Source: a filamentous cyanobacterium CCT1 (lineage in GTDB: Bacteria; Cyanobacteriota; Cyanobacteriia; Phormidesmidales; Phormidesmidaceae). Taken from it: 14,899 nt of DNA. The position numbers were made by a program, and so were the translations under genes. Positions within the stretch are counted from its first letter, which is position 1, and the number at the start of each line of letters is the position of its first letter. Shown here in pieces: positions 318 to 14,899 of the stretch. A model generated the notes under the pieces. It was not told where the DNA came from. It did not search any database and worked only from the letters and a program-made list of their open reading frames with translations. Where the stretch lies: assembly GCA_003017855.1 (NCBI GenBank), contig PYER01000155.1, positions 1 to 14,899 of the forward strand, read 5' to 3'.

Positions 318-2075
318 CTAGCTTTGAACAGCCGGAGACTTCGCCCAGCGATCGCCCTCGACCACCGTATGCACCTGCCAGTCGTCGCTGGTGTGGGGGT
401 AATCTTGGCGAAAGTGGCCGCCACGGCTTTCGGTGCGAAAGGCGGCGCTGTTGAGAATGAGCCAGGCAATGTCGTGCAGGTTGTTCAGTTCGCCCCAGGC
501 GCGCACTAGCGGCCAGTCCAAGGCTTCGGGGAGCGCATAGACAGCGCCTGTGGGCAAATTGTGCAGCGCCTGCAAAGGATGGCGCTGCCACTCGGTGCGC
601 CACTGGCTGAGGGTAGCGATCGCGGCCTCAAGCCCGCTCTGGCTGCGGCTGATGGCGGCGGCATCCCACATCAGCTGGGTCAGACGCTGGCGCTGCTTTT
701 CTACGCTGGCCCAGGCATCTTCCAGGGGCTCTGACCAGTCCAGGGATAACGCTTCCGACAGCTCTGGTGAATCTGGGGCGGCAGCTGGCTCCAGAGGCAG
801 GTGGGCTAGCTCAGCGCCGTAGACCAGGCACTCCAGCAGCGAATTGCTGGCCAGTCGGTTGGCTCCGTGCACCCCTGTGCTGGCGTTTTCGCCCACCGCA
901 TAGAGGCCTGGCACTGAGGTCTGGCTGTGGATGTCGGTGGTGATGCCCCCCATCCAGTAGTGGGCGGCGGGGGCAACGGGCACTGGTTCAGTCAGCGGGT
1001 CGCAGCCCCAGTGGCGGCAGACCTGCAAAATATTGGGAAAGCGGTACTGCACGCGATCGCGCGGAATTGGGCGCAGGTCGAGCCACACCTGGCGATCGCC
1101 CGTTTTTTGCAGGTGGTGAAAAATCGCTCGGCTAACCACGTCGCGGGGGGCCAGCTCGCCGTCGGGGTGGTAGTCAAAGGCAAAGCGGTAGCCGTCGTTG
1201 TCCACCAGGTGAGCCCCCTCGCCGCGCACCGCCTCGCTAATTAAAAACGGCGGGGCTCCCAGCTGGGCCAGGGAGGTGGGGTGAAACTGCACAAATTCCA
1301 AATCGCGCAGCTGCGCCCCGGCCCGCCAGGCCATCGCCACCCCATCGCCCGTGCTGGCGGCGGGGTTAGTGGTTTGGGCATAGACCTGGCCGCCGCCGCC
1401 CGTGGCCAGCACGGTGGCCTGGGCCGACAGCCAGCGCAGCTGCTGATTGTGAACTACCAGAGCGCCTCGACATCGACCTGCCTCAAGCCACAGGTCAAGG
1501 GCAAAGGCCTGCTCAAAGACGGTGATGTTAGGCTGCTGCAGCACTGCCTCCGCCAGAATGGATACGATCGCGCGGCCGGTAGTATCGGCGGCATGGAGCA
1601 CGCGACGGCGCGAGTGGGCCGCCTCCAGGGTCATGGCCAGCTGCCCGTCGCTGCGATCGAAGGCCACGCCTAAATCGACCAGGCGCTCAATACATTCAGA
1701 GGCATGGCTAGCCAGGTGCTCCACGGCTTTAGGGTCGCACAGCCCGGCCCCGGCCACCAGGGTATCGGCTACATGCAGCGACACCGCATCGTCAGCCCCA
1801 ATCGCCGCCGCAATGCCGCCCTGAGCCCAATCGCTAGCCGAAATTGACAGGGTATCTTTGGTCACCAGCCCAATTCGCCACTGGGGAGGAATCGACAGCG
1901 CGGCGTACAGTCCAGCGGCCCCTCCCCCAATCACCAATACGTCAAAGCGGTTGCTCTGGGCTGAGGCTAAATCAGGCTTGGTCAAGGGCGGCTCCCAACT
2001 AGGGTTGATGGTGCGTGAAAGGGTATGTAGAGACTTGACTAAAAGGGTAAATATTGAAAGGCCCCAGCCAGTCAT
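318..2075 (-). CDS. nadB: L-aspartate oxidase (NAD biosynthesis)
   Basis: 585-aa ORF. It has an N-terminal FAD dinucleotide-binding motif (FDVLVIGGGAAGLYAAL) and the fumarate reductase/succinate dehydrogenase/aspartate oxidase family motifs (HPTSL, GANRLASNSLLE, ESRGGHFRQDYP near the C-terminus). The true start may lie downstream of the annotated first start, because about 40 aa precede the FAD motif. Confidence 0.9.
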   Translation of the reverse strand: MTGWGLSIFTLLVKSLHTLSRTINPSWEPPLTKPDLASAQSNRFDVLVIGGGAAGLYAALSIPPQWRIGLVTKDTLSISASDWAQGGIAAAIGADDAVSLHVADTLVAGAGLCDPKAVEHLASHASECIERLVDLGVAFDRSDGQLAMTLEAAHSRRRVLHAADTTGRAIVSILAEAVLQQPNITVFEQAFALDLWLEAGRCRGALVVHNQQLRWLSAQATVLATGGGGQVYAQTTNPAASTGDGVAMAWRAGAQLRDLEFVQFHPTSLAQLGAPPFLISEAVRGEGAHLVDNDGYRFAFDYHPDGELAPRDVVSRAIFHHLQKTGDRQVWLDLRPIPRDRVQYRFPNILQVCRHWGCDPLTEPVPVAPAAHYWMGGITTDIHSQTSVPGLYAVGENASTGVHGANRLASNSLLECLVYGAELAHLPLEPAAAPDSPELSEALSLDWSEPLEDAWASVEKQRQRLTQLMWDAAAISRSQSGLEAAIATLSQWRTEWQRHPLQALHNLPTGAVYALPEALDWPLVRAWGELNNLHDIAWLILNSAAFRTESRGGHFRQDYPHTSDDWQVHTVVEGDRWAKSPAVQS

Positions 2076-2142
2076 CGTTAACCACTAGGGTCAACTTAAC
2101 CAGCCAGGGCCAGTGGGCGTGAGCAGACCTATGACCCGCTGC

Positions 2143-2574
2143 TTACTTATAAACGCCGTTGTTAAAGCGATCGCCACCTTCTGTAAAAGCGGAATCAGGC
2201 ACAGTAACCGTAAAGTTGTCGAGGTTTGCCTTCAGAATGTCGAGCTGCTGCTCGCTCAGCCCAGGCAAATCTAGAACATCTTCAACGCTCTCGTAAGGCG
2301 CGTTGAGCAGAATTTTACGAGCCAGGGTGGGGTACAGGCCCGGAAACTTTCTAAAGCCCTGCACGTTAGCGTTATTCAAGTCGAGTTTAGCGCCGTACTC
2401 AGTTTTTAGTTTGGCATCGACCGCATTTTGCGGCGAGGCTTCTGCCATCCAGGCCATGGCCTCAAGGGGGGCGCTAAAGAGGTCTGCCCCAGAGATAGGC
2501 TGCGCCACAGCCGGGCTACTTACCCAACCCAACAGCACTGCCAGCGCAACGAGTAGGCCAACCAGTTGTTTCAT
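2143..2574 (-). CDS. psbU: Photosystem II 12 kDa extrinsic protein PsbU (precursor with signal peptide)
   Basis: 143-aa ORF with a signal peptide ending AVAQ. The mature part carries the conserved PsbU blocks [35 protein letters not shown]...Q...L..NL..FTV and the C-terminal [19 protein letters not shown] Shine-Dalgarno-like element lies about 10 nt upstream on the minus strand. Confidence 0.9.
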
Positions 2575-2744
2575 TTACCCTAATCCTCTCCTACCAGTGT
2601 GAATGTCTATACACAGCATTTCTAAGAGACTACCATTTTCCATGCCCCTGCAACGGGGAAAGAACGCCATTAGGCGATTCCGCAAAATTCCCCAATTTCA
2701 GAAGGCCCCAGTTTCAAAAAGCTTTTCAGGCGCTACTCCTGGCG

Positions 2745-3203
2745 CTATTCCTGGGGCAGACGCTCTAGTTCTTCGGCATAGTGCTGGCCGACGTCTTGGC
2801 CCTGCAGCAAAATCTGTTCGTACTGAATGGTGGCCCGAATGGCGATCGCGGTGCCCGCCGGGGGCGGGGCCTCGTCGCTCAGCACCCAAATCGCCCCCGA
2901 CTCATCCACCAGTTCGTAGAGCCCCTGGCCCACCAGGGGCAGCTGCTGCTCTACGGTACCCGCTAAATACACCGTCGACTGCTGGGTCTGGCTGACCTCA
3001 GCGATTGGGGTAATGGGGTCGAGCCAGGCCAGGCCAGGCCAGGTGCTGAGGCGATCGCGCAGTCCGTAGCCCACCGTCGCATCGAGGCTGGCCCCGCAGC
3101 TGGTCATGGCGACCAGAACCAGGCCAACTCCGCTTCCAACCATGCCGTAGCGGGTCACCCAGCGGGTAAAGCAGCGCTTTAAGTCAGTCATCGAACCTGT
3201 CAT
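2745..3203 (-). CDS. Hypothetical protein with an N-terminal membrane anchor
   Basis: 152-aa ORF in backbone-like G+C-rich codon usage. It has one hydrophobic segment (GMVGSGVGLVLVAMTS) followed by a soluble domain. I recognise no family motif. Confidence 0.55.
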   Translation of the reverse strand: MTGSMTDLKRCFTRWVTRYGMVGSGVGLVLVAMTSCGASLDATVGYGLRDRLSTWPGLAWLDPITPIAEVSQTQQSTVYLAGTVEQQLPLVGQGLYELVDESGAIWVLSDEAPPPAGTAIAIRATIQYEQILLQGQDVGQHYAEELERLPQE

Positions 3204-3403
3204 AGGAGTTGAGATTACAGCACATACCGGCGCGATGGCCCCTGAGCAAGGCCTCTAAGAAGCGCAACAGAGAGGCGCAACAGAGGAGCAAAATCTGAGA
3301 CACTGGAAAACGTCGGCATCCTCGGCTTTGTCAGACCTGGCTATGGGGCACCGATACCCCTTTATATTGAGATATCCGAGATACAGGTTAGCGCACCTCA
3401 GCC

Positions 3404-4264
3404 ATGACCCTTCTGCTCGACGGCAAGGCCCTCGCCGATCAAATTCAAACCCAGCTAGCCCAGGAGATTCATGCCCTGACTGAGCAGGGCTATCGTCCCC
3501 CAGGGCTGGCGGTGGTCATGGTAGGCGATAACCCCGCTAGTGCCGCCTACGTGCGCAACAAAGAGCGGGCCTGCAGTCGGGTCGGCATTGCCTCCTACGG
3601 CAAACACCTGCCCGCCACCGCCACCCAGGCCGAGGTGGCCGCGCTGCTACAGCAGCTCAACGCCGATCCCAACGTGGACGGCATTCTGGTGCAGCTGCCC
3701 CTGCCTGAGCACCTCGATGCCGTTGCCCTGCTCAATACCATTGACCCCGACAAAGACGCCGACGGGCTGCACCCCATCAATCTGGGCCGGCTGGTGCGCG
3801 GCGAACCGGGCCTGCGCAGCTGTACTCCCTACGGCGTCATGCGTCTGCTGGAGTCAGCCAACATCAACCTGGTGGGGGCAAATGCTCTGGTCGTGGGCCG
3901 CAGCATTCTGGTGGGCAAGCCCATGGCCCTGATGCTGGTTGAGGCCAACGCCACCGTTACCCTGGCCCATTCTCACACCGTCGATTTACCCGCGCTGATG
4001 CGGCAAGCTGATATTCTAGTGGCGGCGGTGGGTCGCCCTGGCATGATTACGGCTGCCGATGTCAAACCCGACAGCGTGGTCATCGATGTGGGCATCAATC
4101 GGGTCGAGCAGCCCGACGGCTCAGCCCGCCTGGTGGGCGATGTCGACTACGCCTCGGTACAGCCGGTGGCGGGAGCCATTACTCCAGTGCCCGGTGGCGT
4201 TGGCCCCATGACCGTGGCCATGCTGCTCGAAAACACCGTCACCAGCTACCGCAGCCGCCTCTAG
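3404..4264 (+). CDS. folD: Bifunctional 5,10-methylenetetrahydrofolate dehydrogenase / methenyltetrahydrofolate cyclohydrolase
   Basis: 286-aa ORF with typical FolD blocks: LDGKALA, VGDNPAS..YV.NK..A...[16 protein letters not shown](A)[65 protein letters not shown]. Confidence 0.93.
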
Positions 4265-4374
4265 GCTCTAAATTAAGCGGTCAAAGCAGGCGGCCAATTA
4301 AAGCGAACAATCTCGTTCAAGCCTGCTCAGTCCAACTCTGTTATTCATCTATTCTCAACCTGCCTGTTGCCGCT

Positions 4375-5304
4375 ATGGTGCCAACCAACTCCCTCGATTC
4401 CAGACCGTCACCTGCTGGCCAGTTTGATCTGGAGGCCTACCTGGCAGAGCAGCGTCAGCGGGTAGAGCTCGCCCTTGACCAGGCCCTGGCCATGCGCTAC
4501 CCCGAAACGCTCTACGAGGCCATGCGCTACTCGCTGCTGGCGGGGGGCAAACGGCTGCGGCCCATTCTCTGTTTGGCCAGCTGCAAGCTGGTTGGCGGCA
4601 GCGTCGAGATGGCTATGCCTACCGCCTGCGCCCTGGAGATGATCCACACCATGTCGCTGATCCACGACGATCTGCCCGCCATGGACAACGACGACTATCG
4701 TCGGGGCCGCCTCACCAACCACAAGGTCTACGGCGAAGATGTGGCCATTTTGGCTGGGGATGGCCTGCTGTCCTATGCCTTTGAGCATGTGGCCACTCAA
4801 ACCCGAGGAGCCGCCCCAGAGCAGATACTGCGCGTGATTGCCGGGCTGGGCAAAGCGGTGGGCGGCGAAGGCCTGGTGGGGGGCCAAATCGTCGATTTGG
4901 CCAGCGAGGGCAATCCCGATGTCTCCTTAGAAACCCTCACCTATATCCACAACCACAAAACAGCAGCTCTGCTCGAAATCTCGGTCACCTCTGGAGCCAT
5001 GCTGGCCGGAGCCAGCGATGACGATGTCGATCGCCTGCGCCAGTACGCCCAGCGCATTGGTCTGGCCTTTCAGATTGTCGATGACATTCTCGACATCACC
5101 GCTACCTCCGAAACTCTAGGCAAGTCGGCGGGCAAAGACATCACCGCTCAGAAGGTCACTTACCCCAGCCTTTGGGGTCTGGACGAATCGCGCCGCCAGG
5201 CCAGCCAGCTGATCGCAGAGGCTAAAGAGAGTCTGGCCGGATTTGGCGACCTGCGCCTGCCCCTGCTGGCGATCGCAGATTATATTGTTGCGCGCACCTA
5301 CTAA
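4375..5304 (+). CDS. crtE: Geranylgeranyl diphosphate synthase (type I polyprenyl synthetase)
   Basis: 309-aa ORF with the first Asp-rich motif ([27 protein letters not shown]), the second Asp-rich motif (FQIVDDILD) and GK.AGKD. The crtE call, as opposed to another short-chain prenyl synthase, rests on cyanobacterial context and is not proven from sequence alone. Confidence 0.85.
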
Positions 5305-5324
5305 ATTCATGACACGCCCTAGGG

Positions 5325-5792
5325 TTGCCTGAGCCGATGGACAGTATTAGCGATATTCTCAACAACCACGTGCTGATTGTGGCTCTGATTGCCTGTTTTA
5401 CGGCTCAGGTGCTCAAGGCCTTTATCGAGCTGGTGCGCCACCGCAAGCTCAACCTGCGGGTAATGGTGGGCACCGGAGGCATGCCCAGCGCCCACTCGGC
5501 CCTGGTAACGGCGCTGGCCTGCGGTATTGGGCAAACCCTGGGCTGGTCAAGCCCGCTGTTTGCCGCTACCTCAGTCTTTTCAATTATTGTCATGTACGAC
5601 GCGGCGGGGGTGCGCCAGGCGGCGGGCAAGCAGGCCAAGGTGCTCAACCAAATTATCGACGAGCTGTTTCAGGAAAAGCCGGAGCTGCGCGAAGACCGCC
5701 TCAAAGAACTGCTGGGCCACACCCCGTTTCAGGTGATTGCCGGATCAATTTTGGGTGTGATGATCTCCTACCTGGCCGCTCCGGCCTACTAG
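5325..5792 (+). CDS. Divergent PAP2 family membrane protein (acid phosphatase/vanadium-dependent haloperoxidase-related, DUF212)
   Basis: 155-aa ORF with several hydrophobic segments and the family signature GGMPS.HSA.V.AL...G, VMYDA.GVR..AGKQA.VLNQI and LKE.LGHTP.QV..G..LG. Confidence 0.82.
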   Translation: MPEPMDSISDILNNHVLIVALIACFTAQVLKAFIELVRHRKLNLRVMVGTGGMPSAHSALVTALACGIGQTLGWSSPLFAATSVFSIIVMYDAAGVRQAAGKQAKVLNQIIDELFQEKPELREDRLKELLGHTPFQVIAGSILGVMISYLAAPAY

Positions 5793-5821
5793 AACGCCGA
5801 CTCAGTATTCGCTGTCCCTCG

Positions 5822-5842
5822 TTCCAATGCTCTGCATTGGAA
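5822..5842. other. Small perfect hairpin (9-bp stem TTCCAATGC / GCATTGGAA, loop TCT)
   Basis: Read directly from the sequence. A second small hairpin with the same TCT loop (GAGGC-TCT-GCCTC, about 5853-5865) follows. Both lie in the convergent intergenic region after the DUF212 gene. Confidence 0.6.
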
Positions 5843-5890
5843 TGCTCGTTGGAGGCTCTGCCTCTCAAACCAAGCGGCAAAGCCGCAAAC

Positions 5891-5923
5891 CCCTGGTGCC
5901 CTAGCTCCGCTAGGGCACCAGGG
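5891..5923. terminator. Strong hairpin between convergent genes, likely a bidirectional intrinsic terminator
   Basis: Perfect 14-bp stem CCCTGGTGCCCTAG (5891-5904) / CTAGGGCACCAGGG (5910-5923) with a 5-nt loop. It sits 22 nt beyond the stop of the minus-strand gene at 5945 and about 100 nt beyond the stop of the plus-strand gene at 5792. On the minus strand it is followed by GTTTGCGGCTTTG, which is moderately T-rich. Confidence 0.6.
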
Positions 5924-5944
5924 TGAACCGGAGCTTGTTAGCCC

Positions 5945-6754
5945 TCACCGAGCCGTGAGCGCTACCGCTGGGGTCAGCATCACTACATCCTGGCTATCGA
6001 CGATAAAGCCGGGAATATTCAGGCTGGTAAGTACCGATAGGGTAGAGGCTGCCCCCTCAACATCGGGGCTGTGGGCAATTAGCAGGTACGATCGCTGGCG
6101 GTGGACCGCTAGCCCTACGGCCTGGCCCACCTGGCGCTGAATGGCGATCGCCGCTTCTGGCTGATACTGATAGTCGACCAGCACCGCAAAGCCTGTGCCC
6201 AAGGGCTGAGGCGCGTAGGCCGTTGGTGCTGATGACGCAGTGGTCGTGCCATTAGCGGGGCTGCTGCTGGGGGCTGTGCCCGCAGCGGGAGGGGTAGCGC
6301 CATTGGCCGGGGTCTCGCTGGTCGGAGCTTCGCTGGCCGGGGTGCCGCTGGCGGGTGGCGCGGGCTGAGCAACGGTGGTAGCCGGTCGGGCGACAAAGGC
6401 CTGGAAGCCCTCGACCTCGGTCATGTACTGAGCCCAGGCGTTGGCATTCTCTAAGTTAGTGAAACCGCCTGCCCGCACGACCGTATCGTTGAGGTAGTCG
6501 CAGACCAAGACGGTGCTGTTGGAGGGGAGCAGGTCTTGCACGCGATCGCGCTCGGCCTCGGTGTTGCTGCGCACCAGCAGCAGGTACTCGTTGGCTGAGG
6601 GGGGCGGACAGGGCGGAAACTGAGCGCTGGCCGGGTTCCAGAACCCCAGCGCGGGGGCCAGCATCACACCCAGGGCCACGGCCCCCGACCTGAAGCCCTG
6701 TCGCTGTAAAAGCCGTACCCGCGTTCCCTTGCTCCGTTTCAAACCCTTTACCAT
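5945..6754 (-). CDS. Secreted hypothetical protein: two small globular modules joined by a Pro/Ala/Thr/Ser-rich linker
   Basis: 269-aa ORF with a basic N-terminus, a hydrophobic stretch and a likely signal peptide cleavage site (ASAQ). An approximately 70-aa low-complexity linker (PAPPASGTPASEAPTSETPANGATPPAAGTAPSSSPANGTTTASSAPTAYAP) separates two domains. The function is unknown. Confidence 0.65.
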   Translation of the reverse strand: MVKGLKRSKGTRVRLLQRQGFRSGAVALGVMLAPALGFWNPASAQFPPCPPPSANEYLLLVRSNTEAERDRVQDLLPSNSTVLVCDYLNDTVVRAGGFTNLENANAWAQYMTEVEGFQAFVARPATTVAQPAPPASGTPASEAPTSETPANGATPPAAGTAPSSSPANGTTTASSAPTAYAPQPLGTGFAVLVDYQYQPEAAIAIQRQVGQAVGLAVHRQRSYLLIAHSPDVEGAASTLSVLTSLNIPGFIVDSQDVVMLTPAVALTAR

Positions 6755-7103
6755 TGGTTTCTTTACTGCACTGCCAAAGTCTGCCAGCGATTCTAGCCTA
6801 AAGCAGCGATCGCTGAGCAGAGAATTCAGGTTTTGATTGTAATTTCATCGGCTGCGTCATCCATAACCAGGGTTCGCCCAATCGACCATCCAGACGAGGC
6901 CCGAGATTGGGCCAGGGTCAGAAGGGCTTTCCAAGCCCTATGGAGTCTAAGCCCCGCACCATTGATAACTGGGGTATTGAGCTGCTCACCCGCGACCTGG
7001 TGCCGCGCCACAGCCTAGATCCTTTTTCCGGAACCTCTTCAAATGACGGTGTTAGACTCAGTAGGAGATTTCTGTACTGCCTCTGCTATCTGGAGTTTTC
7101 GTA

Positions 7104-7607
7104 ATGGCCTTTGACCGTCTTGCGGATGTTCAAGCTAACCTAACAACACTTTATGAACAGCTGGCAGGTAAGGAACAGGCTTTTCTCCTAGCGGAAGAAG
7201 CAGAAAAGGTTCGGATTCAGCAACAGATTCGCTTAACTTGGCAACGGATACATAAGTTTGAGCACGAATATGCTACCACGTTAGGCCAGCAAGTTAAGCG
7301 GCAGGCTTTACAAGAGTCTCAAGCAGAGATCATCATAGCAGAACTAGTAGATGAGATTGAAATTTTAACCCCGCTACAGAAGAATGATGATGTCAAAGTG
7401 TTGCTGCAGCAAATCTTGCAGGAGCTACAGAAGCCAGAGTTGCCAGCTTCGGCCAAGCTGAAAGTAGCGATTCCGATTATTCCTCAGGTCGTGAGCTACG
7501 AGATAGAGGGTGACACGGAAGGTGTTTTACGGCAACTATTTCCAACCTTCGTAAAGGTGTACGACAATCTGAAACTACTTACTTCACCAGATGAGGGAAA
7601 AAAGTAG
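7104..7607 (+). CDS. All-helical / coiled-coil-like small protein; candidate N-terminal module or partner of the downstream NB-ARC NTPase
   Basis: 167-aa ORF with an ATG start and GGAG 8 nt upstream (7092-7095). It is AT-rich like the downstream gene. Heptad-like charged/hydrophobic patterning extends over about 110 aa (LTTLYEQLAGKEQAFLLAEEAEKVRIQQQIRLTWQRIHKFEHEY...). A more hydrophobic segment follows (KLKVAIPIIPQVVSYEIEG...LFPTFVKVY). The ORF ends at the A_AAA_AAG TAG site. Confidence 0.7.
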   Translation: MAFDRLADVQANLTTLYEQLAGKEQAFLLAEEAEKVRIQQQIRLTWQRIHKFEHEYATTLGQQVKRQALQESQAEIIIAELVDEIEILTPLQKNDDVKVLLQQILQELQKPELPASAKLKVAIPIIPQVVSYEIEGDTEGVLRQLFPTFVKVYDNLKLLTSPDEGKK

Positions 7608-7660
7608 TCGCCCTTGATACTGACCTTACCGGGTCAAGGGCAGTTGCAAAACAGGTAGGG
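7598..7660 (+). promoter_or_regulatory. Candidate -1 programmed ribosomal frameshift cassette (slippery heptamer, spacer and stem-loop with possible pseudoknot)
   Basis: Zero-frame codons are GGA AAA AAG TAG, so A7598 AAA AAG7604 is an X_XXY_YYZ heptamer identical to the dnaX/IS911-type A_AAA_AAG. The -1 frame has TGA at 7592-7594 and is then open through 7679 to 11428. A 5-nt spacer is followed by an 8-bp stem GCCCTTGA (7610-7617) / TCAAGGGC (7634-7641). Loop bases CCTTACC (7624-7630) can pair with GGTAGGG (7654-7660). Confidence 0.45.
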
Positions 7661-7678
7661 GCAAGTAACCGTTCACCT

Positions 7679-10600
7679 TTGAATCCTGGTGCACCTTTTC
7701 CCAAAGTGCGTTTGCCCGAGAACTTTGTAGCTCGCCCTGATGCTTTGAATGCTGTGAAGGCAAAGCTTCTGGCAAAAAATGAGCAAATGCTTGTAGTGAG
7801 CGCAATCGCCGGTTTAGGAGGACTTGGTAAATCTGTCTTAGCAGCAGCGTTGATATTGGACTTAGAAGTACAAGAGCGATTTGCAGATGGTATTTTGTGG
7901 GTGACGTTGGGACAAAACCCTGACTTACAGACAATGTTAGGAGATTGGATTCGGGAATTAGACAAATCACGGGATGCGTTTAGCGCGAATACGCTTGAGG
8001 CTGCTTCGCGATACTTACACAACCTTTTGATAGAGCGGCGAATGTTGCTCGTCGTTGACGATGTGTGGAATGCAACTCACGCAGAGTGGTTTCGAGTTGG
8101 GGGTGTAGGGTGTCGAGTTTTAGTGACGACTCGAGAGGCTCAACTTGAGGGAGCTGAGTACTATTCATTGGATTTGATGACTGAGAATGAAGCTGTTGAC
8201 CTAGTACGCCAGAAGCTAAAACATGTGTGGCGACCGGAAGAGGAACATAAGGTTAGAGACTTTGCAAAAGTTTTAGGGTATTTACCTTTAGCATTAGATT
8301 TAGCCACAAACCAAGTTCGGCATGGACTCAGTTGGGCAGATTTAAAGGCGGAATTTGAGGCAGAACGGCGAGCCGTTGCCTTAGGAGCCGGACGAAGATC
8401 GCGAGCGATTACATTATTGGACTCTTTGGAAGCTTGGGACCGCCTAGATGAGAACGAGCAACGTAATTACAGTTTGCAAGCTTGTTTCAACTTAAGTTTA
8501 AACCGCTTAAACAAGCTACAGTTAAAGCAGTTCGCTTGGTTAGGAGTGCTCCCCGAAGACGTAATTATCACGGGAACAACAGCAGCAGTTCTGTGGGATG
8601 TACCGCTCATTCAAGCAAAAAGAATCTTGGCTCTGCTGCGAACACGTTCTTTCTTAACTGATGGAGTGGTAACTTTTGAAAATGAGCTGACGTATCGAGT
8701 ACATGACTTGATGCATGATATTGCACGCTGCCTCATTGAAGAGGACACCCTTCAAGTCAAAAGCCTTGATCTTGAGTCTAAAAACTGTTTTCAAATAGCA
8801 CACTGCCACTTTCTTGATCGCTATCGTAATTTGGCAGCATATGGATTATGGGAGAAGTTACCCAATGATGGCTATATCCATCGGCATTTAACCTGGCATA
8901 TGGTGCAAGCAGGATTAAATGACGAGCTCCATCAATTGATGTCAGCAAGCAATGAATATGGACGAAACGCTTGGTTTGAAGCATGTGAGCAAGTTGGGCA
9001 ACCCGCAATTTTTGTAGACGATGTATCTCGAGGATGGAAATTAGCTGAGGAAGAGTATTATAACCAACCCTCTAAGTCACTTATCCTGCAGTGCCGTTAT
9101 GCTTTGGTGACAGCAAGCCTTCATAGCTTGGTTGAGCAAGTGCCTGCAAATCTGATGTCAGAATTCATGATGCGAGGATATTGGACGCCAGAGCAGACTT
9201 GGGCGTATGTAGAACAAATACAAGATGACCAGAGAGTTTCTGAAGCGATAGTAGCTCTCGCTCCTTCTTTACCAGAGTATATACTCAATTTAGCAGTTAA
9301 AAAAGCTCATCTAATCCAAAATAAGTATAGAAAAGCCCTTGCTCTAAGCTCTCTGGCTCAGATCAAGCATTCTATATTTCCGGATGCTTCAAGAGCCGTA
9401 GATGAAATTCGAGATGAGTACTGTCGCGCATTTGTTTTATGTACACTTACTCAAATTTCTGGTATTAGTTTTACACAGCGCCAAAAGCTATCAGAGATCG
9501 CAAGTAGTTTCCAAAATAAAGAGTATCAAAGAAGAGCTTTAAATTGTCTAAATAGTATCAGAAAGACTGATTCTAGCTGTACTCAAGAGAGTTCGCCTGA
9601 ATTTAATCTATTTAAAAATTTTTCCACTCCTGATACTGATTTCGCGAGCTCCAGCTTTAAATTTCTTCTTAAGCAAGCCAAAGAAACAGATTTCGGATAT
9701 CCCCGTGCATGTTTACTGAGCGCGTTAGCCAAACACGAAGATGCTGATTTCACACAATTGCTAGAAGTGGCACGTTCCATCAGGGATGAAAACGAATTTG
9801 CATATACACTGAGTAAATTAGCTAAGCTTAACCATATCTATTTTGAGGAGGCATTCAGGGCAACAAAGCTCATAACAGACAGCTACAGATATAAACATAT
9901 TTTTCGTGCATTATCTCAGGTTCAGGGTGCAGATTTTACACGATTGTTCGAGACGGCGCAAAAAATCTCAAACTTTTCTGACCGTAGCGACGTACTATGT
10001 GAGCTAGCTCGTATGGAGTCTGCTAGCTTTATGCAGTTGCTTGAGGCGGCGCAAAAAATCTCAAATTTTTCTGACCGTAGCGATCTACTATGCGAGCTGA
10101 CTCACATGAAGTCTGCCGACTATACTGTTCTCTTAAAAACAACACAGGAACTCTTCAAAGAAACTGTCTTTTCAAAAAAACAGAATAGACAACCCAGCAG
10201 TTACTTAAATAGAATTTTTCGGACGCTAGCAAAGATGAAGTCTGCTAACTTTTACCAACTTCTCAAGCTAGCACAAAAGCTTCCTGCCGCTGATCGCGGC
10301 GAGATGATATGTGCACTAGCTCAGATGGAGTCTGCTGACTTCAACCAACTACTCAAATTAGCACGAGAAATTCCTGCCGCTGATCGCGGCGAGATGATAT
10401 GTGCACTAGCTCAGATGGAGTCTGCTGACTTCAGCCAACTACTCGAATTAGCACGAGAAATTCCTGCCGCTGATCGCGGCGAGATGATATGTGCACTAGC
10501 TCAGATGGAGCCTGCTGACTTCAACCAACTACTCGAATTAGCACGAGAAATTCCTGCCGCTAAACATAGCGACGTGCTATGTGCATTATCTCAGATGGAG

Positions 10601-11428
10601 TTTGCTGACATTAATCAATTAAAAAAGGCGGCAAAAAGACGAAAGATTTCTGACCCGGAGTTATTTCTTTTCCTAGCCCGTCTAAAATCAGAAGATTTTA
10701 ATCGGCTCTTGGCAACAGCACAAAATGCCCTGAATCTCTCCGATCATCCGGAAGTGTTGTGTGCGTTGTCTCAAATGGAGTCTGCTGATTTCAGCCAACT
10801 ACTCAAACTTGCGCGCAAAATTCCTGCGTCTAGGTGCCGTGAGGTGTTGTGTTCATTGGCTCGGATGGAGTCTGCTGACTTCAGTCAATTGCTTAAGCTA
10901 GCGCAAAAAATTTCGAATCCTTATGACTATTGCAAAGTGTTGAGTGCTTTATCCGACTTAAATTCAGCAAATTTTACTCAATTATTAAGGGCCGCGCAAA
11001 ATTTACAGGATGAAAGAGAATTGAGTAATTTGTTAGTCCAACTAGCCAAAAAGGAAGCGGTAAATTTCATTGATCTATTAGAATCAATAAAGCTTATTCA
11101 GGACGAAATGATTCGTGCGAATGTCTTAATTGAAATAGCGTGTAGAGTATCATCCTCTTTGTTGGACAAAGCATTTCAGGTTGTAGATTCCATAACACAC
11201 AGGCCTACTGGAGCAAAAGTGATTAGTAGTTTAATTGCTTGTCCTACTAACGTTATCAAGACTTATGCTGACTGGCAATTTTCTTTAAATCTTCTTTCCT
11301 GCCGAAAACGTTCAGAGCTGATGCAAGACATTGTTTCTCTGCATTATGTCATCACATATTTTAGTGGAGAGGAAACGATGAACGGTATCGTCGATGCTAT
11401 GCGAGAAGTTTGTGATCAATGGAAATAA
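7679..11428 (+). CDS. NB-ARC (Apaf-1/R-protein/CED-4 type) STAND NTPase with C-terminal helical-repeat sensor; NLR-like protein
   Basis: 1249-aa ORF. NB-ARC motifs occur in canonical order: P-loop GLGGLGKS (7811-7834), RNBS-A-like FADGILWVTLGQNPD, Walker B/kinase-2 LLVVDDVW (8045-8068), RNBS-B RVLVTTRE, GLPL-like LGYLPLAL (8276-8296), RNBS-D-like CFNLSLNRL...FAWLGVLPED, and MHD-like VHDLMHD (8699-8719). An Apaf-1 HD2-like segment follows (YIHRHLTWHMVQAGLNDELHQLM...NAWFEA), then about 20 repeats of 30-31 aa. The annotated start is a TTG with no convincing Shine-Dalgarno element. The first in-frame ATG (7787) is only 8 codons before the P-loop, so the real N-terminus is uncertain (see the frameshift cassette). 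Confidence 0.9.
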   Translation: MNPGAPFPKVRLPENFVARPDALNAVKAKLLAKNEQMLVVSAIAGLGGLGKSVLAAALILDLEVQERFADGILWVTLGQNPDLQTMLGDWIRELDKSRDAFSANTLEAASRYLHNLLIERRMLLVVDDVWNATHAEWFRVGGVGCRVLVTTREAQLEGAEYYSLDLMTENEAVDLVRQKLKHVWRPEEEHKVRDFAKVLGYLPLALDLATNQVRHGLSWADLKAEFEAERRAVALGAGRRSRAITLLDSLEAWDRLDENEQRNYSLQACFNLSLNRLNKLQLKQFAWLGVLPEDVIITGTTAAVLWDVPLIQAKRILALLRTRSFLTDGVVTFENELTYRVHDLMHDIARCLIEEDTLQVKSLDLESKNCFQIAHCHFLDRYRNLAAYGLWEKLPNDGYIHRHLTWHMVQAGLNDELHQLMSASNEYGRNAWFEACEQVGQPAIFVDDVSRGWKLAEEEYYNQPSKSLILQCRYALVTASLHSLVEQVPANLMSEFMMRGYWTPEQTWAYVEQIQDDQRVSEAIVALAPSLPEYILNLAVKKAHLIQNKYRKALALSSLAQIKHSIFPDASRAVDEIRDEYCRAFVLCTLTQISGISFTQRQKLSEIASSFQNKEYQRRALNCLNSIRKTDSSCTQESSPEFNLFKNFSTPDTDFASSSFKFLLKQAKETDFGYPRACLLSALAKHEDADFTQLLEVARSIRDENEFAYTLSKLAKLNHIYFEEAFRATKLITDSYRYKHIFRALSQVQGADFTRLFETAQKISNFSDRSDVLCELARMESASFMQLLEAAQKISNFSDRSDLLCELTHMKSADYTVLLKTTQELFKETVFSKKQNRQPSSYLNRIFRTLAKMKSANFYQLLKLAQKLPAADRGEMICALAQMESADFNQLLKLAREIPAADRGEMICALAQMESADFSQLLELAREIPAADRGEMICALAQMEPADFNQLLELAREIPAAKHSDVLCALSQMEFADINQLKKAAKRRKISDPELFLFLARLKSEDFNRLLATAQNALNLSDHPEVLCALSQMESADFSQLLKLARKIPASRCREVLCSLARMESADFSQLLKLAQKISNPYDYCKVLSALSDLNSANFTQLLRAAQNLQDERELSNLLVQLAKKEAVNFIDLLESIKLIQDEMIRANVLIEIACRVSSSLLDKAFQVVDSITHRPTGAKVISSLIACPTNVIKTYADWQFSLNLLSCRKRSELMQDIVSLHYVITYFSGEETMNGIVDAMREVCDQWK
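9236..11240 (+). repeat. Intragenic array of about 20 degenerate 30-31-aa alpha-helical (HEAT/ARM-like) repeats, the sensor region of the NB-ARC protein
   Basis: The recurring consensus is D/N-x-x-x-R-x-x-v-L-C-A-L-a-q-M-E-S-A-D-F-x-Q-L-L-k-L-A-q-k-I, read along the translated ORF. Examples are SDRSDVLCELARMESASFMQLLEAAQKIS, ADRGEMICALAQMESADFNQLLKLAREIP and SRCREVLCSLARMESADFSQLLKLAQKIS. The boundaries are approximate. Confidence 0.8.
10281..10550 (+). repeat. Three near-identical tandem 90-bp units inside the sensor repeat array
   Basis: TTCCTGCCGC recurs at 10281, 10371, 10461 and 10551, a period of 90 bp or 30 codons. The units 10281-10370, 10371-10460 and 10461-10550 differ pairwise at only 2 of 90 positions by hand alignment. 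Confidence 0.92.
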
Positions 11429-11602
11429 ATAGCAATTGAATTGTTTTCCTGAAATGAGTTCTTATAAAAGGACTACTTTATAGGCGTCGGATAATTTTCG
11501 GTGAGTTTAAATGGCCTTGAGGTTTATCTGAGAAAAAACCCTTTGACCAAAATTCAAATGGCCTTTCGATTGCATTAGGCTTTATACCTTTAAACTGCGA
11601 GA

Positions 11603-11800
11603 CTACCGATCGCACCCCTTTACCCTAAACACCTCCCCCTGCTCTGGGGTAACCAAAATCCCCGACTCTGGTATCGTTACCGACCGGCTCCACTTCCGCC
11701 ATTCCAGATACTCGACCACTATGGAAGGTTTTCAGCGTAGCCAGCCAAGCCTTAACCCAGTCCTTATTACTTCAAGAGTGAGAGGTGATGATACATGCTG
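11603..11800 (-). pseudogene. Decayed C-terminal relic of a paralogue of the 160-aa gene at 12730-13212
   Basis: 11625-11700 aligns to 12761-12836 with 66/76 identical bases by hand alignment (50/53 over the first 53). The minus-strand translation ...EYLEWRKWSRSVTIPESGILVTPEQGEVFRVKGCDR* parallels ...AEQREWSRQFTIPESGILITPEQGEVFSYLLRYRQLD*. The frame is closed by an in-frame TGA at 11732-11734. Further upstream similarity (LAGYAE, HVSSP) appears only in other frames. The upstream extent is uncertain. Confidence 0.5.
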
Positions 11801-12085
11801 CAACAGGTTATGGCCCAAATCCTGCTCCATCTCTCCGATTACTTGGCAGAACGCCTGGCCCCCTTCCAAGAAAAGCTACCAGAGCTGCTTGAGCGTGGTC
11901 TGCAAGACGTGCTAGACCAACCGACTCAAGACAACCCCGAGCAAGAGGCTGAGCTAGATCAGTCTCAACAACACGCCGAACTATTTAGAATTCCTCGTCA
12001 GATCCGCACCGACATACAAGCTAAGCACGGAACCTACCAAGGTGATCTACTAACCGAAGCCCGCTGCCAGGAGTTCCAGCCATAA
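11795..12085 (+). CDS. Hypothetical small acidic protein
   Basis: 96-aa ORF with an ATG start and GAGAGG 9 nt upstream (11780-11785). I recognise no motif, and it partly overlaps the relic region, so it may not be a real gene. Confidence 0.4.
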   Translation: MLQQVMAQILLHLSDYLAERLAPFQEKLPELLERGLQDVLDQPTQDNPEQEAELDQSQQHAELFRIPRQIRTDIQAKHGTYQGDLLTEARCQEFQP

Positions 12086-12133
12086 TAGAACCATCCCAAC
12101 AGCGACGAGGTGGCCTGCCCATGACAGGTATCA

Positions 12134-12358
12134 TCAGGCCGCATAACGACGGATTTCAACCTCGGCACCGCTGGCAATTGCTTCTTCTGCCCGTTCCAGC
12201 AGATCTCCAGTTACCTCATCACTGAGGTAGTACTCACCACAGTTTTCGCAAACCTCAGCAGGTACTCGTTTAAACACGACGATGGCTCCCTCCCGGTCTA
12301 AGGTGACCGTTACCAGCCCGGCCTGGGTTTGTCCTTGTTTGCAAATCACACAGTTCAT
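12134..12358 (-). CDS. YgiT-type (MqsA-like) zinc-finger protein, putative antitoxin
   Basis: 74-aa ORF with two CxxC pairs (CVICKQG ... CENCGE) and the typical layout MxCxxC..G......tvtl.r.g..vv...VPA.VCxxCGE.Y. Its ATG overlaps the stop of the upstream DUF4258 gene (ATGA, 12355-12358). Confidence 0.82.
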   Translation of the reverse strand: MNCVICKQGQTQAGLVTVTLDREGAIVVFKRVPAEVCENCGEYYLSDEVTGDLLERAEEAIASGAEVEIRRYAA

Positions 12359-12672
12359 GGTTGTTTCCGAGTTTTGAAATCAGGTTGCCACAGGTTTAGA
12401 TCCGGTTCATAGGCAGTAACGACATAAGCAGTCTGTGTGTCAGCATCCATTGCCGCTACAACATGAATCGGCCGCTGATTTACTACCCTCAGCATAAGAT
12501 AGCTGGGATAAGGGCGATCATTGGGATATTCGGCGATCACTTCCCCTTCAGCCAGAACTGCCTTAACTTCGTCTCGGCTAATCGTGCGCTGAAACATCTG
12601 TTTAATGGCATGACCTGAGAAAACGAGCGTTTGATAATCCACCCTGGCTGATAATCCATAGAGGGCACTCAT
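12355..12672 (-). CDS. DUF4258 domain protein, putative toxin of a type II toxin-antitoxin pair
   Basis: 105-aa ORF matching the DUF4258 pattern: FSGHAIKQMFQRTISRDEVKAVL..GEVIAEYPNDRPYPS.L.L....RPIHVV.A.D.....YVVTAYEPD...W..DFKTRK. It has the canonical gene order and 4-bp overlap with the zinc-finger partner. Confidence 0.8.
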   Translation of the reverse strand: MSALYGLSARVDYQTLVFSGHAIKQMFQRTISRDEVKAVLAEGEVIAEYPNDRPYPSYLMLRVVNQRPIHVVAAMDADTQTAYVVTAYEPDLNLWQPDFKTRKQP

Positions 12673-12683
12673 CCACCATTATC

Positions 12684-12720
12684 GAAAAGATCCCTGGACT
12701 ACTCAGGAATCCAGGGATCT
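12684..12720 (-). terminator. Perfect 11-bp-stem hairpin with a T-tract: intrinsic terminator of the 160-aa gene and/or operator palindrome of the toxin-antitoxin promoter
   Basis: AGATCCCTGGA (12688-12698) pairs with TCCAGGGATCT (12710-12720) around an 11-nt loop. On the minus strand the hairpin is followed by TTTTC (12684-12687 are AAAA on the plus strand). It lies between the stop at 12730 and the start at 12672. Confidence 0.5.
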
Positions 12721-12729
12721 AATTCACAA

Positions 12730-13212
12730 CTAATCCAACTGCCGATACCGTAGTAGGTAGCTAAACACCTCCCCCTGCTCCGGGGTAATCAAAATCCCCG
12801 ACTCCGGTATCGTGAACTGGCGGCTCCACTCCCGCTGCTCGGCGTACCGCGGCAAATTCAGGTGGTTAATCGCCCCTCGCACCCCTTCCGGCGACCCAAT
12901 CACCAGATGGCGCAACCGCTCGCGCCCCGGCTGACTCTCCGAATTCGCAAGCAGCAGCGGAGTCGTCGCCTCACTCCGATGGGCAAGCGCTACTAAATAT
13001 GGCAAACACAACATCAGGGTTTCCTCCAAGAAACGGATGGGTAGGAAACCCAAAATTTGGCCGCTCCCAGACAATATGCGGTTCAGAGCGGCCAGAGTAA
13101 CATAGTACTCAGCGCCCGAGACTGCTTGCTCAGCCTTGGGGGTCAGCCGCTGGTTGGTGTTGGTAGCACCTTCCAGCGGCGTTCGACCAAATTTTGGGAT
13201 ACCAAGCTGCAC
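12730..13212 (-). CDS. Hypothetical protein; a second decayed copy of this family lies at about 11.6-11.8 kb
   Basis: 160-aa ORF in backbone-like codon usage. The annotated start is a GTG, so the N-terminus is uncertain. The C-terminal block REWSRQFTIPESGILITPEQGEVF is conserved in the relic copy. Confidence 0.62.
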   Translation of the reverse strand: MQLGIPKFGRTPLEGATNTNQRLTPKAEQAVSGAEYYVTLAALNRILSGSGQILGFLPIRFLEETLMLCLPYLVALAHRSEATTPLLLANSESQPGRERLRHLVIGSPEGVRGAINHLNLPRYAEQREWSRQFTIPESGILITPEQGEVFSYLLRYRQLD

Positions 13213-13419
13213 GCAGACAGCTCTAAATCAGAAATTTAGCCCATTGCGATCGCCTAAGCAAGTCAAAATTGCTACAGAGTGCACCACCGTCTTGAACCTT
13301 AACATTGCAGAGAGTTCCGCAGAGGCGCAGTCGTCGATTGTCGAGAACAGTTACGTCGCTGTATCTCTTCCAAATTTCTGCACTGGTAAAATTGGACTCA
13401 TCCCTACCCATCTCTTGCG

Positions 13420-13770
13420 ATGCCCCCTGTCGACATCCGGCAACGAGCTATCTCTCTCATCGAGCAACTGCCTCAAAGTAAGCTAGCAGCAGTGGTTCAG
13501 CTGTTGGAGGTATTGACAGAACCAACCTCTCAAAGTGTAGCGAATGGTGATGAAACGCACCTGCTGGAGATTATCCAGCGGCGTCTACCAGAAGCAGAGC
13601 AAGCACGATTGAATGAATTGCGCGATGCTCAAAGAGCGGCCCTTGATGGCCAACGCTGCGAATGGGGCGAACTCACTGAAGCAGAACACCAGGAGCTGAT
13701 CCGCTACGAAGATCTCCTGGAACAGCACCGGGTCGAGCGACTGGAAGCTCTGATAGAACTTAGGCATTAA
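13420..13770 (+). CDS. Hypothetical small helical protein (antitoxin-like N-terminal LIEQLP...L helix)
   Basis: 116-aa ORF with an ATG start. It is a charged helical protein (RLPEAEQARLNELRD...ELTEAEHQELIRYEDLLEQHRVERLEALIELRH). No partner gene is evident downstream, and no clear Shine-Dalgarno element is present. Confidence 0.5.
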   Translation: MPPVDIRQRAISLIEQLPQSKLAAVVQLLEVLTEPTSQSVANGDETHLLEIIQRRLPEAEQARLNELRDAQRAALDGQRCEWGELTEAEHQELIRYEDLLEQHRVERLEALIELRH

Positions 13771-14035
13771 CACTAAATCGTGCAGGGGTCATTAACCTGA
13801 GACGGCTTTTGGCTTCAGCAGGGCTGCATCCTCCTGAGTAGATACTGCTCCTTGATCTAGAGCAATCACGTTGCTAAATCGTTATGCAGCTCCGTTCATG
13901 GGCAATGTTCAAATACCGGCAGGCCAACGCACAATAGCCCTGTTATCCATCGCACCTCTACAGTGAGGCGTCAATGCTTGAGTGCGATCGCTCACTGGTT
14001 TAGATTGCGGCCCAACAATGCCAATGCGAGGGCTC

Positions 14036-14198
14036 ACACGCTTAATGCGTCTATGGTTTGCTTTATTGTTATAGAGCAACTTCGAATCTGCAGCCGTCAC
14101 AATCTTAATTGCACCCCTCGCAGTCTTAATGCGATCGCGCGCACGCTTAATGTATCTATGGATTGCTCTACTGTCATTGAGCAACTTCGAATCTGCAG
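14036..14198. repeat. 105-bp-period direct duplication containing a 14-nt motif YCRCANNCTTAATG phased at multiples of 21 bp
   Basis: CTTAAT occurs at 14041, 14104, 14125 and 14146, at offsets of 63, 84 and 105 bp. The segment 14041-14093 (CTTAATGCGTCTATGGTTTGCTTTATTGTTATAGAGCAACTTCGAATCTGCAG) matches 14146-14198 at 46/53 positions by hand alignment. Confidence 0.8.
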
Positions 14199-14527
14199 GG
14201 CTCACATTCGTACCTGCTCAATTCACATTGGCATTGTCATTGCTGCACATCAATCATTCAGCGCTGACAACAAGCCCGCAGCGCCAAAACCCTTTCCAAC
14301 CTGAGGGCGACCTTTATCAACGCTTCATCAAAATCGTTAGTCTCAGCGTGCAACTGGGCAATCTTGGCAATAGATGAGACAAATCGACGATACCGCCCCA
14401 AACGTCGGCTCTGACTCGCCTGTTCCAGAACTACTCGTCACTACTCCATCGTCTGCCTTACGCCCGAATCTCTCGGGCATGCGGCTTGTTCGTGCCCAGC
14501 TACATCTACCAATAAGGTTTAACTCCT

Positions 14528-14899
14528 ATGGCTGTTGTCAATATTGCTCGTCGTCTATCTGTAAAAACCGTTAGAGCCGACATCGATTCCCTCAACGCGC
14601 TCGGCACCGTCGAGGGCTATACCCCTGTACGGGCCGACTCTGCTCCTGATGCCCTCAAAACCAGCTATGCCAACATGCTGGCCATGCAGCAAAAAGAAAC
14701 TGAGCTGCAGGTAATGATGAAAGCCGCCAGTGATACCGCCCGCCAGGCCGAGTGGGAGTTCCACAACGCCATTTTGTCGATGAAAGAAGCCGTTCGCGCC
14801 CAGTTTGGCCCCGACAGCAACGCCGCCCAGGCGATTGGCTACAAGAAAAAGTCGGAACGCAAGCGCCCCCGCCGCATAGTAAAAGCAGAGGCGATGTAG
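14528..14899 (+). CDS. Hypothetical protein with a basic C-terminal tail
   Basis: 123-aa ORF with an ATG start and a stop at the last 3 nt of the window. It has G+C-rich, third-position-biased codons typical of the backbone. I recognise no motif. Confidence 0.55.
   Translation: MAVVNIARRLSVKTVRADIDSLNALGTVEGYTPVRADSAPDALKTSYANMLAMQQKETELQVMMKAASDTARQAEWEFHNAILSMKEAVRAQFGPDSNAAQAIGYKKKSERKRPRRIVKAEAM

Follow-up and report, generated by a model that had tools for sequence, protein, structure and literature searches.

Do the two open reading frames (ORFs) in the AT-rich middle of a cyanobacterial contig encode two independent proteins, or are they parts of one gene that is read in two ways? The contig is PYER01000155.1 of the filamentous cyanobacterium CCT1 (assembly GCA_003017855.1), of which we analysed positions 1 to 14,899 on the forward strand, a stretch of 14,899 nucleotides referred to below as the window. 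Both ORFs lie on the plus strand. The upstream one, ORF1 (7104-7607), encodes 167 aa, and the downstream one (7679-11428) encodes an NLR-like STAND protein of 1249 aa with an NB-ARC domain. A first-pass annotation, made from the letters of the window, had delimited both ORFs as we find them and had taken the smaller one for an unrelated helical ORF. This view of ORF1 has to be given up, as ORF1 apparently encodes the conserved N-terminal module of the system, and a conserved signal for -1 frameshifting links it to the NLR gene. Judging from the sequence comparisons presented below, the frameshift product is likely to be real and selected.

A candidate frameshift signal between ORF1 and the NB-ARC gene

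In all close full-length homologues of the large protein, the conserved start of the core, PL(K/N)PGAPFP(R/K)VRLPENF, is internal. The ORF in the window opens directly with this motif, and the only available start codon, TTG at 7679, encodes the leucine of the motif. Therefore, the large protein appears without its front module. The public annotation (C8B47_11845, 1227 aa) begins at a TTG 22 codons inside the ORF (L23), and NPGAPFPKVRLPENFVARPDA is lost from it.

The 3′ end of ORF1 reads GAG GGA AAA AAG TAG. It contains a slippery heptamer, A_AAA_AAG (7598-7604), in the X_XXY_YYZ phase of ORF1, and the TAG stop codon (7605-7607) stands directly 3′ of it, as in most related loci. A_AAA_AAG, like G_GGA_AAG, ranks among the most shift-prone heptamers in E. 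coli (PMC5009743). RNAfold predicted a candidate stimulatory hairpin at 7610-7641, which begins 5 nt 3′ of the heptamer and has a 9-bp stem with arms at 7610-7618 (GCCCTTGAT) and 7633-7641 (GTCAAGGGC). From 7595 to 11428, no stop codon interrupts the -1 frame. Its first part is a linker, GKKVVALDTDLTGSRAVAKQVGASNRSP (7595-7678), which contains no ATG, GTG or TTG codon and is followed by LNPGAPFP and the NB-ARC ORF. The linker comprises 28 codons, and over 24 codons it aligns without a difference in length to those of L045, L048 and L049. A -1 shift would yield a predicted fusion protein of 1441 aa, including a predicted tryptic peptide, VVALDTDLTGSR, that is encoded solely by the -1 frame upstream of TTG 7679. 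A search of the window against Rfam gave no family, and relaxing the threshold to E <= 5 for 7500-7760 gave none either.

Conservation of the signal in related loci

DNA of related loci was drawn from genomes, metagenomes and an exact-protein look-up; only about 25 loci were close, and the locus counts given here are small and not independent of phylogeny. An in-phase A_AAA_AAG or G_GGA_AAG (a degenerate C_AAA_AAG in L049) terminated ORF1 in 22 distinct loci, with the stop codon directly after the heptamer or within two codons, and the identity between the ORF1 proteins of these loci was as low as 45%. Over the 20 codons past the heptamer, the -1 frame had no stop codon (0/440), compared with 26/440 for the +1 frame and 45/440 for the 0 frame. 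As a background, the fetched DNA contained 446 ORFs with a length of 150 aa or more, ORF1 included, of which 34 had some in-phase heptamer equally near the stop. The heptamer was A_AAA_AAG or G_GGA_AAG in 28 of these 34, which is about the number of ORF1 copies fetched.

In the -1 frame, 20 of the 22 loci continue with a partner ORF of at least 150 aa. STAND NTPases make up most of the partners, which fell into several families, namely NB-ARC with 30-aa repeats, NB-ARC with TPR, NACHT-like, NACHT with HEAT, nSTAND5 with TPR, and TPR only; two others matched no NTPase and are short (159 and 170 aa). Loci L002 and L054 have ORF1 and the hairpin in common, and their partners diverge about 20 codons past the heptamer. 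ORF1, heptamer and hairpin thus move together as a unit. L029 is interrupted after 63 codons, and two loci are clearly degraded: an indel lies in a G8 run in L003, and ORF1 is split internally in L005.

The hairpin helix is also conserved. In 13 A_AAA_AAG loci, a helix of 9 bp located 5-6 nt past the heptamer had 92% of its cells paired, whereas slid controls were 28-49% paired. Compensatory changes occurred at five of the nine pairs, and none of 500 shuffles matched the observed value. RNAalifold independently predicted the same helix. A covariance model (R1), searched against 534 kb on both strands, matched solely at ORF1 3′ ends. Its matches outside the training set were L005 with 54 bits and, more weakly, L004, L051 and L003.

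Some related loci differ in layout. In L032 (5481-5530), ORF1 ends with G_GGA_AAG_TAG and no partner ORF follows; a perfect 22-bp inverted repeat comes next, and the locus looks orphan. The partner in L051 (5001-8035) and L054 (5001-8070) is a TPR-only protein of about 400 aa without an NTPase, followed by an RVT_1 gene, and these loci with TPR-only and reverse transcriptase genes may represent a different type of system with the same front module. L057 (5001-9265) encodes an ORF1 with an N-terminal HEAT extension (240 aa), then A_AAA_AAG_TAG and a -1-frame NACHT and HEAT protein, and its first start codon in the -1 frame lies 146 nt past the ORF1 stop. Protein P0178 (198 aa) was considered as an in-frame read-through and rejected, since it results from a G8-run indel, and CC_A_AAA_AAG_TAG is intact further downstream. 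A role of the junction hairpin as a DNA recombination site for module swapping was likewise set aside as the main explanation, because it leaves the heptamer phase and the stop-free -1 frame unexplained.

ORF1 represents a family of terminal modules

ORF1 has about 90 close homologues (word-index search), nearly all of 158-198 aa. Its AlphaFold2 model is all-alpha with six helices, with a predicted local distance difference test score (pLDDT) of 81.8 and a predicted template modelling score (pTM) of 0.73. The C-terminal KK is nearly invariant and the ten residues before it are variable. None of the ~90 close homologues is an in-frame fusion of ORF1 with an NTPase; only more divergent members have such fusions. 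ORF1 gave no match against Pfam, NCBIfam or PADLOC, and BLASTP and phmmer comparisons with the N-terminal parts of 120 NB-ARC homologues were likewise negative. Alignment of profiles with hhalign gave a probability of at most 3% against the EAD4, EAD2-like and 129-aa N-terminal groups (EAD, effector-associated domain). A fold comparison by Foldseek against the PDB returned designed proteins, CdvB, Psu and apolipophorin III; these are generic helical bundles, none with E <= 1e-3, and did not lead to a fold assignment.

A profile search of 1.84 billion representatives recovered 300 members of the ORF1 family (clusters at 50% identity), most of them stand-alone. In other members the ORF1 domain is N-terminal and in frame with further domains, as in P0356 (nSTAND1) and P0374 (NTPase with TPR) and in proteins with TPR, GUN4 or periplasmic-binding domains. 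It is C-terminal in caspase-GUN4, STAS-LRR-Roc-COR, SNF2 and NACHT-like proteins. Residues 191-771 of P0374 are similar to the -1-frame partner of L031, a G_GGA_AAG locus (37% identity, E = 3e-101). One pair of modules thus forms an in-frame fusion in one organism, and in another the two are joined through a frameshift site. Archaeal proteins with lengths of 580-1190 aa in loci L014-L022 (Methanosarcina, Methanolobus) also contain the conserved core of ORF1 (about residues 93-142, surrounding the motif KLKVAIPIIPxVVSYELEGD), located at their very C-terminal end. Therefore, the ORF1 module extends past the bacteria.

From these searches, ORF1 defines a family of terminal modules that is new and comprises about 300 clusters, with members fused to STAND, Roc-COR, caspase-GUN4 and SNF2 proteins. 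It is small, all-alpha in the model, N- or C-terminal in its host proteins and also found alone, an architectural behaviour in line with what Kaur et al. (PMC8195603) describe as the "EAD principle"; by sequence it is not a Pfam EAD.

The NB-ARC core and the HEAT-like sensor

Counted from its first possible start (TTG), the 1249-aa protein matched Pfam NB-ARC over aa 22-186 with 82.6 bits (cut-off 23.5, E = 3.5e-23). Its translation contains GLGGLGKS, LLVVDDVW, VLVTTR, GYLPLAL and HDLMHD, which cover the Walker A, Walker B, RNBS-B/sensor-1, GLPL and MHD classes and are kept in 24 aligned homologues; GLGGLGKS, the Walker A or P-loop motif (7811-7834, plus strand), lies inside the Pfam match. 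The full NB-ARC motif set recognised in the first-pass annotation is thus borne out. APAF1_C, the Apaf-1-type HD2, scored 21.1 bits, below its cut-off of 22.8, and reached 26.0 bits in the homologue P0002. By sequence, the closest relatives of solved structure are AfsR, Apaf-1, ZAR1, MLA13 and Sr35.

The long repeat sensor that had been proposed is predicted to be a C-terminal HEAT-like alpha-solenoid followed by a conserved cap (9296-11425, plus strand). In the AlphaFold2 model, the C-terminal 710 residues are all-alpha and form repeats of about 30 aa with two helices each (pLDDT 79.6). Foldseek with this model returned transportin-3, SF3B1 and importins with E = 1e-5 to 1e-3. Inside the sensor, a tandem array of 4.3 units of 90 bp (10226-10609, plus strand) is 90% identical (86-92% between units), and these units appear to have expanded recently. 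Dozens of almost identical 30-aa repeats are present in the homologues P0002 and P0010, and the near-identity of sensor repeats suggests a rapid repeat turnover. The sensor repeats can be likened to those of fungal NLRs, which are highly conserved internally. Neither an enzymatic domain nor a DNA-binding domain was found in the large protein.

The large protein has 746 homologues, essentially all cyanobacterial, and an identical counterpart (100%) in "filamentous cyanobacterium CCP4". Its close full-length homologues (44-47% identity) bear an additional N-terminal module, which is EAD4, EAD10 with trypsin, EAD2-like, TIR or caspase.

The cassette occupies a variable chromosomal site

The first-pass annotation had described the two ORFs as cargo of an AT-rich island at 7020-11600 without HIP1 sites. 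Its 14 perfect HIP1 octamers (GCGATCGC) were all recovered by a pattern search, at the same positions and against 0.33 expected by chance in the window. The interval without any site is broader than had been noted and runs from 6813 to 13246. Based on the density outside this gap, 1.65 per kb, the probability of finding no site is 2.4e-5 over 6432 nt and 5e-4 over 4581 nt. The G+C content in 500-nt windows is 0.36-0.47 within 7000-11500; on the left it is 0.50-0.67, on the right 0.48-0.57, and overall it is 0.428 for 7020-11600 against 0.607 for 1-6880. The G+C content at third codon positions is shifted as well, being 0.45 in ORF1 and 0.37 in the NB-ARC gene, compared with 0.73-0.76 in five of six backbone genes and 0.58 in that of PsbU.

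Comparison with relatives places the HIP1-free insert (G+C 0.43) with the ORF1/NLR cassette at 6877-11624. The 269-aa flank protein (gene 5945-6754) groups the host organism with Nodosilinea, and the left flank carries core genes (FAD flavoprotein, PsbU, FolD, polyprenyl synthase and DUF212 in the Pfam scan). Collinearity of this backbone with the Nodosilinea loci L059 and L060 stops at 6876 and 6862, and similarity to the cassettes of L045, L047, L048 and L049 begins at 7027-7104. The site is empty in Nodosilinea sp. LEGE 06152 (L060), where Ycf54 directly adjoins the homologue of the 269-aa gene. Between the same two genes, Nodosilinea sp. AN01ver1 (L059) carries another insert of about 6 kb. 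Its cargo (L059:3861-10000) consists of a PIN toxin-antitoxin pair, a 541-aa TIR_2 and GUN4 protein, DUF488 and UPF0175; the insert has a G+C content of 0.49, compared with 0.57 for the locus, and contains two HIP1 sites. This chromosomal site is a hotspot at which cargo is swapped. The empty site and the alternative cargo indicate that the region is a variable hotspot and that the cassette is missing from at least one close relative. The segment thus shows both a deviant composition and absence at the same site in a close relative, by which a genomic island is recognised.

Hallmarks of mobility were searched for as well. The window contains no tRNA gene, and Pfam scans found no integrase domain. 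No direct repeat flanks the cassette. The sole direct repeat, of 75 nt, encloses a toxin-antitoxin pair on the right. Of the earlier proposal of a horizontally acquired island, the foreign composition and the variable site stand, and an integrase, a tRNA gene and a flanking target duplication are not among the features found. The segment of about 6880-11620 is best read as a horizontally acquired cassette at a variable site of a Nodosilinea-like cyanobacterium.

The right limit of the AT-rich cassette is marked by a relic at 11625-11699, a 75-nt copy that is 88% identical to 12761-12835, in the 3′ end of the gene at 12730-13212 (160 aa). To its right lies the toxin-antitoxin pair (12134-12672, minus strand), composed of a DUF4258 toxin (12355-12672) and a YgiT/MqsA-type zinc-finger antitoxin (12134-12358). 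The pair is a neighbour in the same variable region and lies outside the cassette. As the two copies of the 75-nt repeat bracket it, a separate insertion of the DUF4258/YgiT pair is suggested. Both the toxin-antitoxin pair and the gene relic had been anticipated in the first-pass annotation, as had the variability of the site. Beyond 13320 the window is not collinear with either Nodosilinea relative, and Ycf54 and PdxJ were not found there. The ORFs of 13321-14899 have no Pfam match, and HIP1 sites return at 13246, 13984 and 14131. The variable region may extend to the contig end. Scans of the window for sigma-70 promoters and terminators gave results no better than those of shuffled sequences.

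Neighbours of the related loci include GmrSD, PIN toxin-antitoxin genes and reverse transcriptase.

Alternative explanations

Several observations weigh against a selected frameshift or against a defence function. Frameshifting is a prediction from the sequence. The RNAfold z-score of the 91-nt stretch by itself is -0.66, which is unremarkable, and support for the hairpin therefore comes from covariation, the single-sequence score not being significant. No conserved upstream Shine-Dalgarno-like stimulator was seen. In L047 (Oculatella), the hairpin loop has lost 1 nt, which moves the NB-ARC ORF to the +1 frame; slippage by -1 would add only 27 residues there. This stretch (L047:5495-5580, Oculatella sp. 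FACHB-28) is the sole locus with a +1-frame NB-ARC and has a GmrSD type IV restriction gene directly upstream; a -2 slip on the A7G run is formally possible there, and the loop deletion is the simpler explanation. A plausible start of its own is available to the NTPase in L024 (ATG) and in L048 and L049 (GTG at "QVG"), and GTG at "xVGR" is a possible NTPase start in all four G_GGA_AAG loci. Because several loci keep a plausible start, the NLR may also be made alone. More distant relatives (Trichodesmium, Anaerolinea and L008) are ATGA- or ATG-coupled pairs without the heptamer. These coupled pairs indicate that covalent fusion is not obligatory for the family and that ORF1 is evidently able to work in trans, and the lack of the heptamer in distant relatives suggests that the frameshift linkage is a derived feature of one clade. 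Finally, no similarity between ORF1 and a known effector or EAD was detected, and neither ORF1 nor the large protein matches any family of PADLOC-DB v2 at E <= 0.01.

Some of these points would be expected of an ordinary two-gene operon, in which ORF1 and the NLR are separate proteins, the latter translated from TTG 7679, and the hairpin and the A-rich end couple the two genes or set their ratio. The ATGA-coupled distant relatives, the possible starts in L024 and, as GTG, in L048, L049 and the G_GGA_AAG group, and the +1-frame partner of L047 are all in line with it, and gene callers annotate two genes at every locus. Such an operon does not, however, account for a heptamer that is conserved at the nucleotide level and always in phase, with A (C in L049) before AAA-AAG or as G_GGA_AAG, nor for the contrast between no stop in 440 codons of the -1 frame from the heptamer and 26 in the +1 frame, nor for partners of at least six families in the -1 frame. 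The start codon of the NTPase shows no positional conservation among loci. The valine codon of "QVG" is GTG in L047, L048 and L049; it is GTA in the window and in L045, the closest relative (ORF1 identity 84%), and yet the valine residue and the linker length are kept there. The first start codon of L045 falls within the conserved RVR-L-PDNF motif. In-frame fusions of the same modules also exist. We consider an ordinary operon unlikely. Transcriptional slippage would lead to the fusion by another route, since one extra A added by RNA polymerase in the A6 run would, reasoning from the sequence, give an edited mRNA in exactly the fusion frame, and A-runs are known slippage sites (PMC3711429). 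The run has 6 A, however, and efficient slippage is reported for more than 7 A (PMC3711429); one clade uses G_GGA_AAG with three A only, and a conserved hairpin 5-6 nt downstream is a hallmark of a ribosomal stimulator. Slippage of the polymerase is thus a very improbable source of the fusion. A continuous ORF1-NLR gene that was broken by a 1-nt homopolymer indel, through mutation or sequencing error, would have its homopolymer exactly at the break, as is the case here, and decay is evident in L003 and L005. But the same break with an adjacent stop recurs in 22 distinct loci with ORF1 identity down to 45%, and fusions in frame are missing from the 90 close homologues and occur solely in divergent members. 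In addition, a second assembly, strain CCT1, encodes both ORF1 and the adjacent flank protein with 100% identity, and both ORFs of the cassette are otherwise intact across 4.3 kb. Decay or mis-assembly is therefore hardly credible.

The remaining alternative concerns function. The NB-ARC protein could be a signal-transduction switch like AfsR or MalT without a role in defence, its location in a variable region being incidental. AfsR is its best sequence match among solved structures and in NCBIfam, no enzymatic effector is present, and the PADLOC check, which matched neither protein, did not support the defence function put forward in the first-pass annotation. On the other hand, a DNA-binding domain is absent, the N-terminus of close homologues is formed by TIR, caspase, trypsin or EAD modules, the composition is foreign, and the sensor repeats are nearly identical and of recent expansion. 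The cassette is also missing in one close relative, and TIR-GUN4 and PIN cargo occupies the same site in another. We regard a pure signalling role as improbable. A role in defence or cell death is suggested by the genomic context together with the TIR, caspase, trypsin and EAD N-termini of homologues.

Relation to known systems

An Apaf-1-like NB-ARC family of cyanobacteria has been treated in comparative work by Kaur et al. in 2021 (PMC8195603), and a 2026 survey of STAND proteins found the closest Apaf-1 homologues to be cyanobacterial (PMC13581612). The earlier statement that bacterial NB-ARC members of this kind are uncharacterised needs qualifying, since this Apaf-1-like cyanobacterial clade has figured in comparative work (PMC8195603, PMC13581612). 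The large protein resembles the Apaf-1-like NB-ARC STANDs of both studies in its NB-ARC core, 30-aa HEAT-like repeats and C-terminal cap, and has a candidate APAF1_C-like HD2 with a score just under the cut-off, and the full-length identity is 44-47%. The N-terminal position of these proteins is modular and swappable. Unlike in the Apaf-1-like STANDs, the module in the window is a separate ORF, joined through a heptamer and a hairpin, and belongs to a family outside Pfam.

Only a few cellular bacterial genes, dnaX, cdd, copA and csoS2 among them, are known to use programmed -1 frameshifting. The signal in the window is similar to those of dnaX (A_AAA_AAG and hairpin), lambda G/GT (G_GGA_AAG) and IS3 orfA/orfAB, with a heptamer in phase and a stem-loop 5-6 nt downstream (PMC5009743, PMC3711429). 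As in lambda G/GT and IS3, a short frequent and a long rare product with a common N-terminus are predicted here. It differs from the dnaX, lambda G/GT and IS3 sites in its STAND/NLR context, in having no conserved Shine-Dalgarno-like stimulator, and in the stop codon directly past the heptamer. Full-text literature searches retrieved no report that ties programmed frameshifting to STAND/NLR proteins or describes the site in the window. The receptor class and the recoding mechanism are known; their combination and the module family have not been described previously.

In the fungal NWD2/HET-S pair and in animal NLR-ASC signalling through PYD or CARD, the NLR and its partner signal through a common terminal element, and Dyrka et al. 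reportedly described amyloid signalling motifs associated with bacterial NLRs. The locus would share with NWD2/HET-S, the pairs of Dyrka et al. and NLR-ASC a small protein, encoded just upstream, that has a sequence element in common with the N-terminus of the NLR, so that like-with-like recruitment is possible once the NLR has oligomerised. Systems of the NWD2/HET-S type duplicate a short motif in two genes, whereas here the whole 167 aa would be common to both products and the same codons would be decoded twice. In contrast to amyloid-motif systems, the AlphaFold2 model of ORF1 is helical. The overall plan, an N-terminal output domain, a central STAND NTPase and a C-terminal repeat sensor in a variable region beside a toxin-antitoxin pair, is that of Avs1-21 and bNACHT, antiviral STANDs known from experiment; unlike these, the proteins of the window match no PADLOC hidden Markov model, the NTPase is of the NB-ARC type and outside the Avs and NACHT clades, and no enzymatic effector is present.

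Proposed mode of action

We propose that the locus is one recoded gene system. Most ribosomes translating ORF1 would halt at TAG 7605 and release a free six-helix protein of 167 aa. A minority would slip by -1 on A_AAA_AAG, aided by the adjacent stop codon and the hairpin at 7610-7641, and would read through the linker into the NB-ARC ORF to make a rarer ORF1-NB-ARC-HEAT protein of 1441 aa. Both products would then come from one mRNA. In the fusion, ORF1 would fill the N-terminal output place that is held by EAD, TIR, caspase or trypsin in homologues. The HEAT-like solenoid may detect a trigger, for example a phage protein or another non-self protein, upon which the NB-ARC switch would oligomerise. 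The ORF1 domains clustered in this way may engage the pool of free ORF1 like-with-like, or may act directly, and the result would be cell death or growth arrest that limits phages or other invaders. Taken as a whole, with a foreign cassette, ORF1 and ORF1-NLR as products and a role in conflict or defence, this account seems to us fairly probable.

A more tentative extension is that ORF1, heptamer and hairpin form a portable "self-matching" output cassette, in which the free ORF1 pool is kept at a fixed ratio and the ORF1 heads of the receptor nucleate a lethal or signalling assembly. If so, the cassette might play in bacteria the part that NLR-ASC plays in animals or NWD2/HET-S in fungi, with the difference that its receptor and effector are never mismatched, and would serve at least six receptor families; we put this forward as a speculative possibility.

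If the frameshift is real, a conserved recoding event recurs over several STAND families of filamentous cyanobacteria. The annotation of the large protein would have to be corrected, as the NCBI model that begins at L23 omits a conserved N-terminal segment. Frameshifting would also provide a simple means to fix the ratio of a receptor to a free copy of its own output domain. The ORF1 family gives a testable handle on signalling by effector-less bacterial NLRs.

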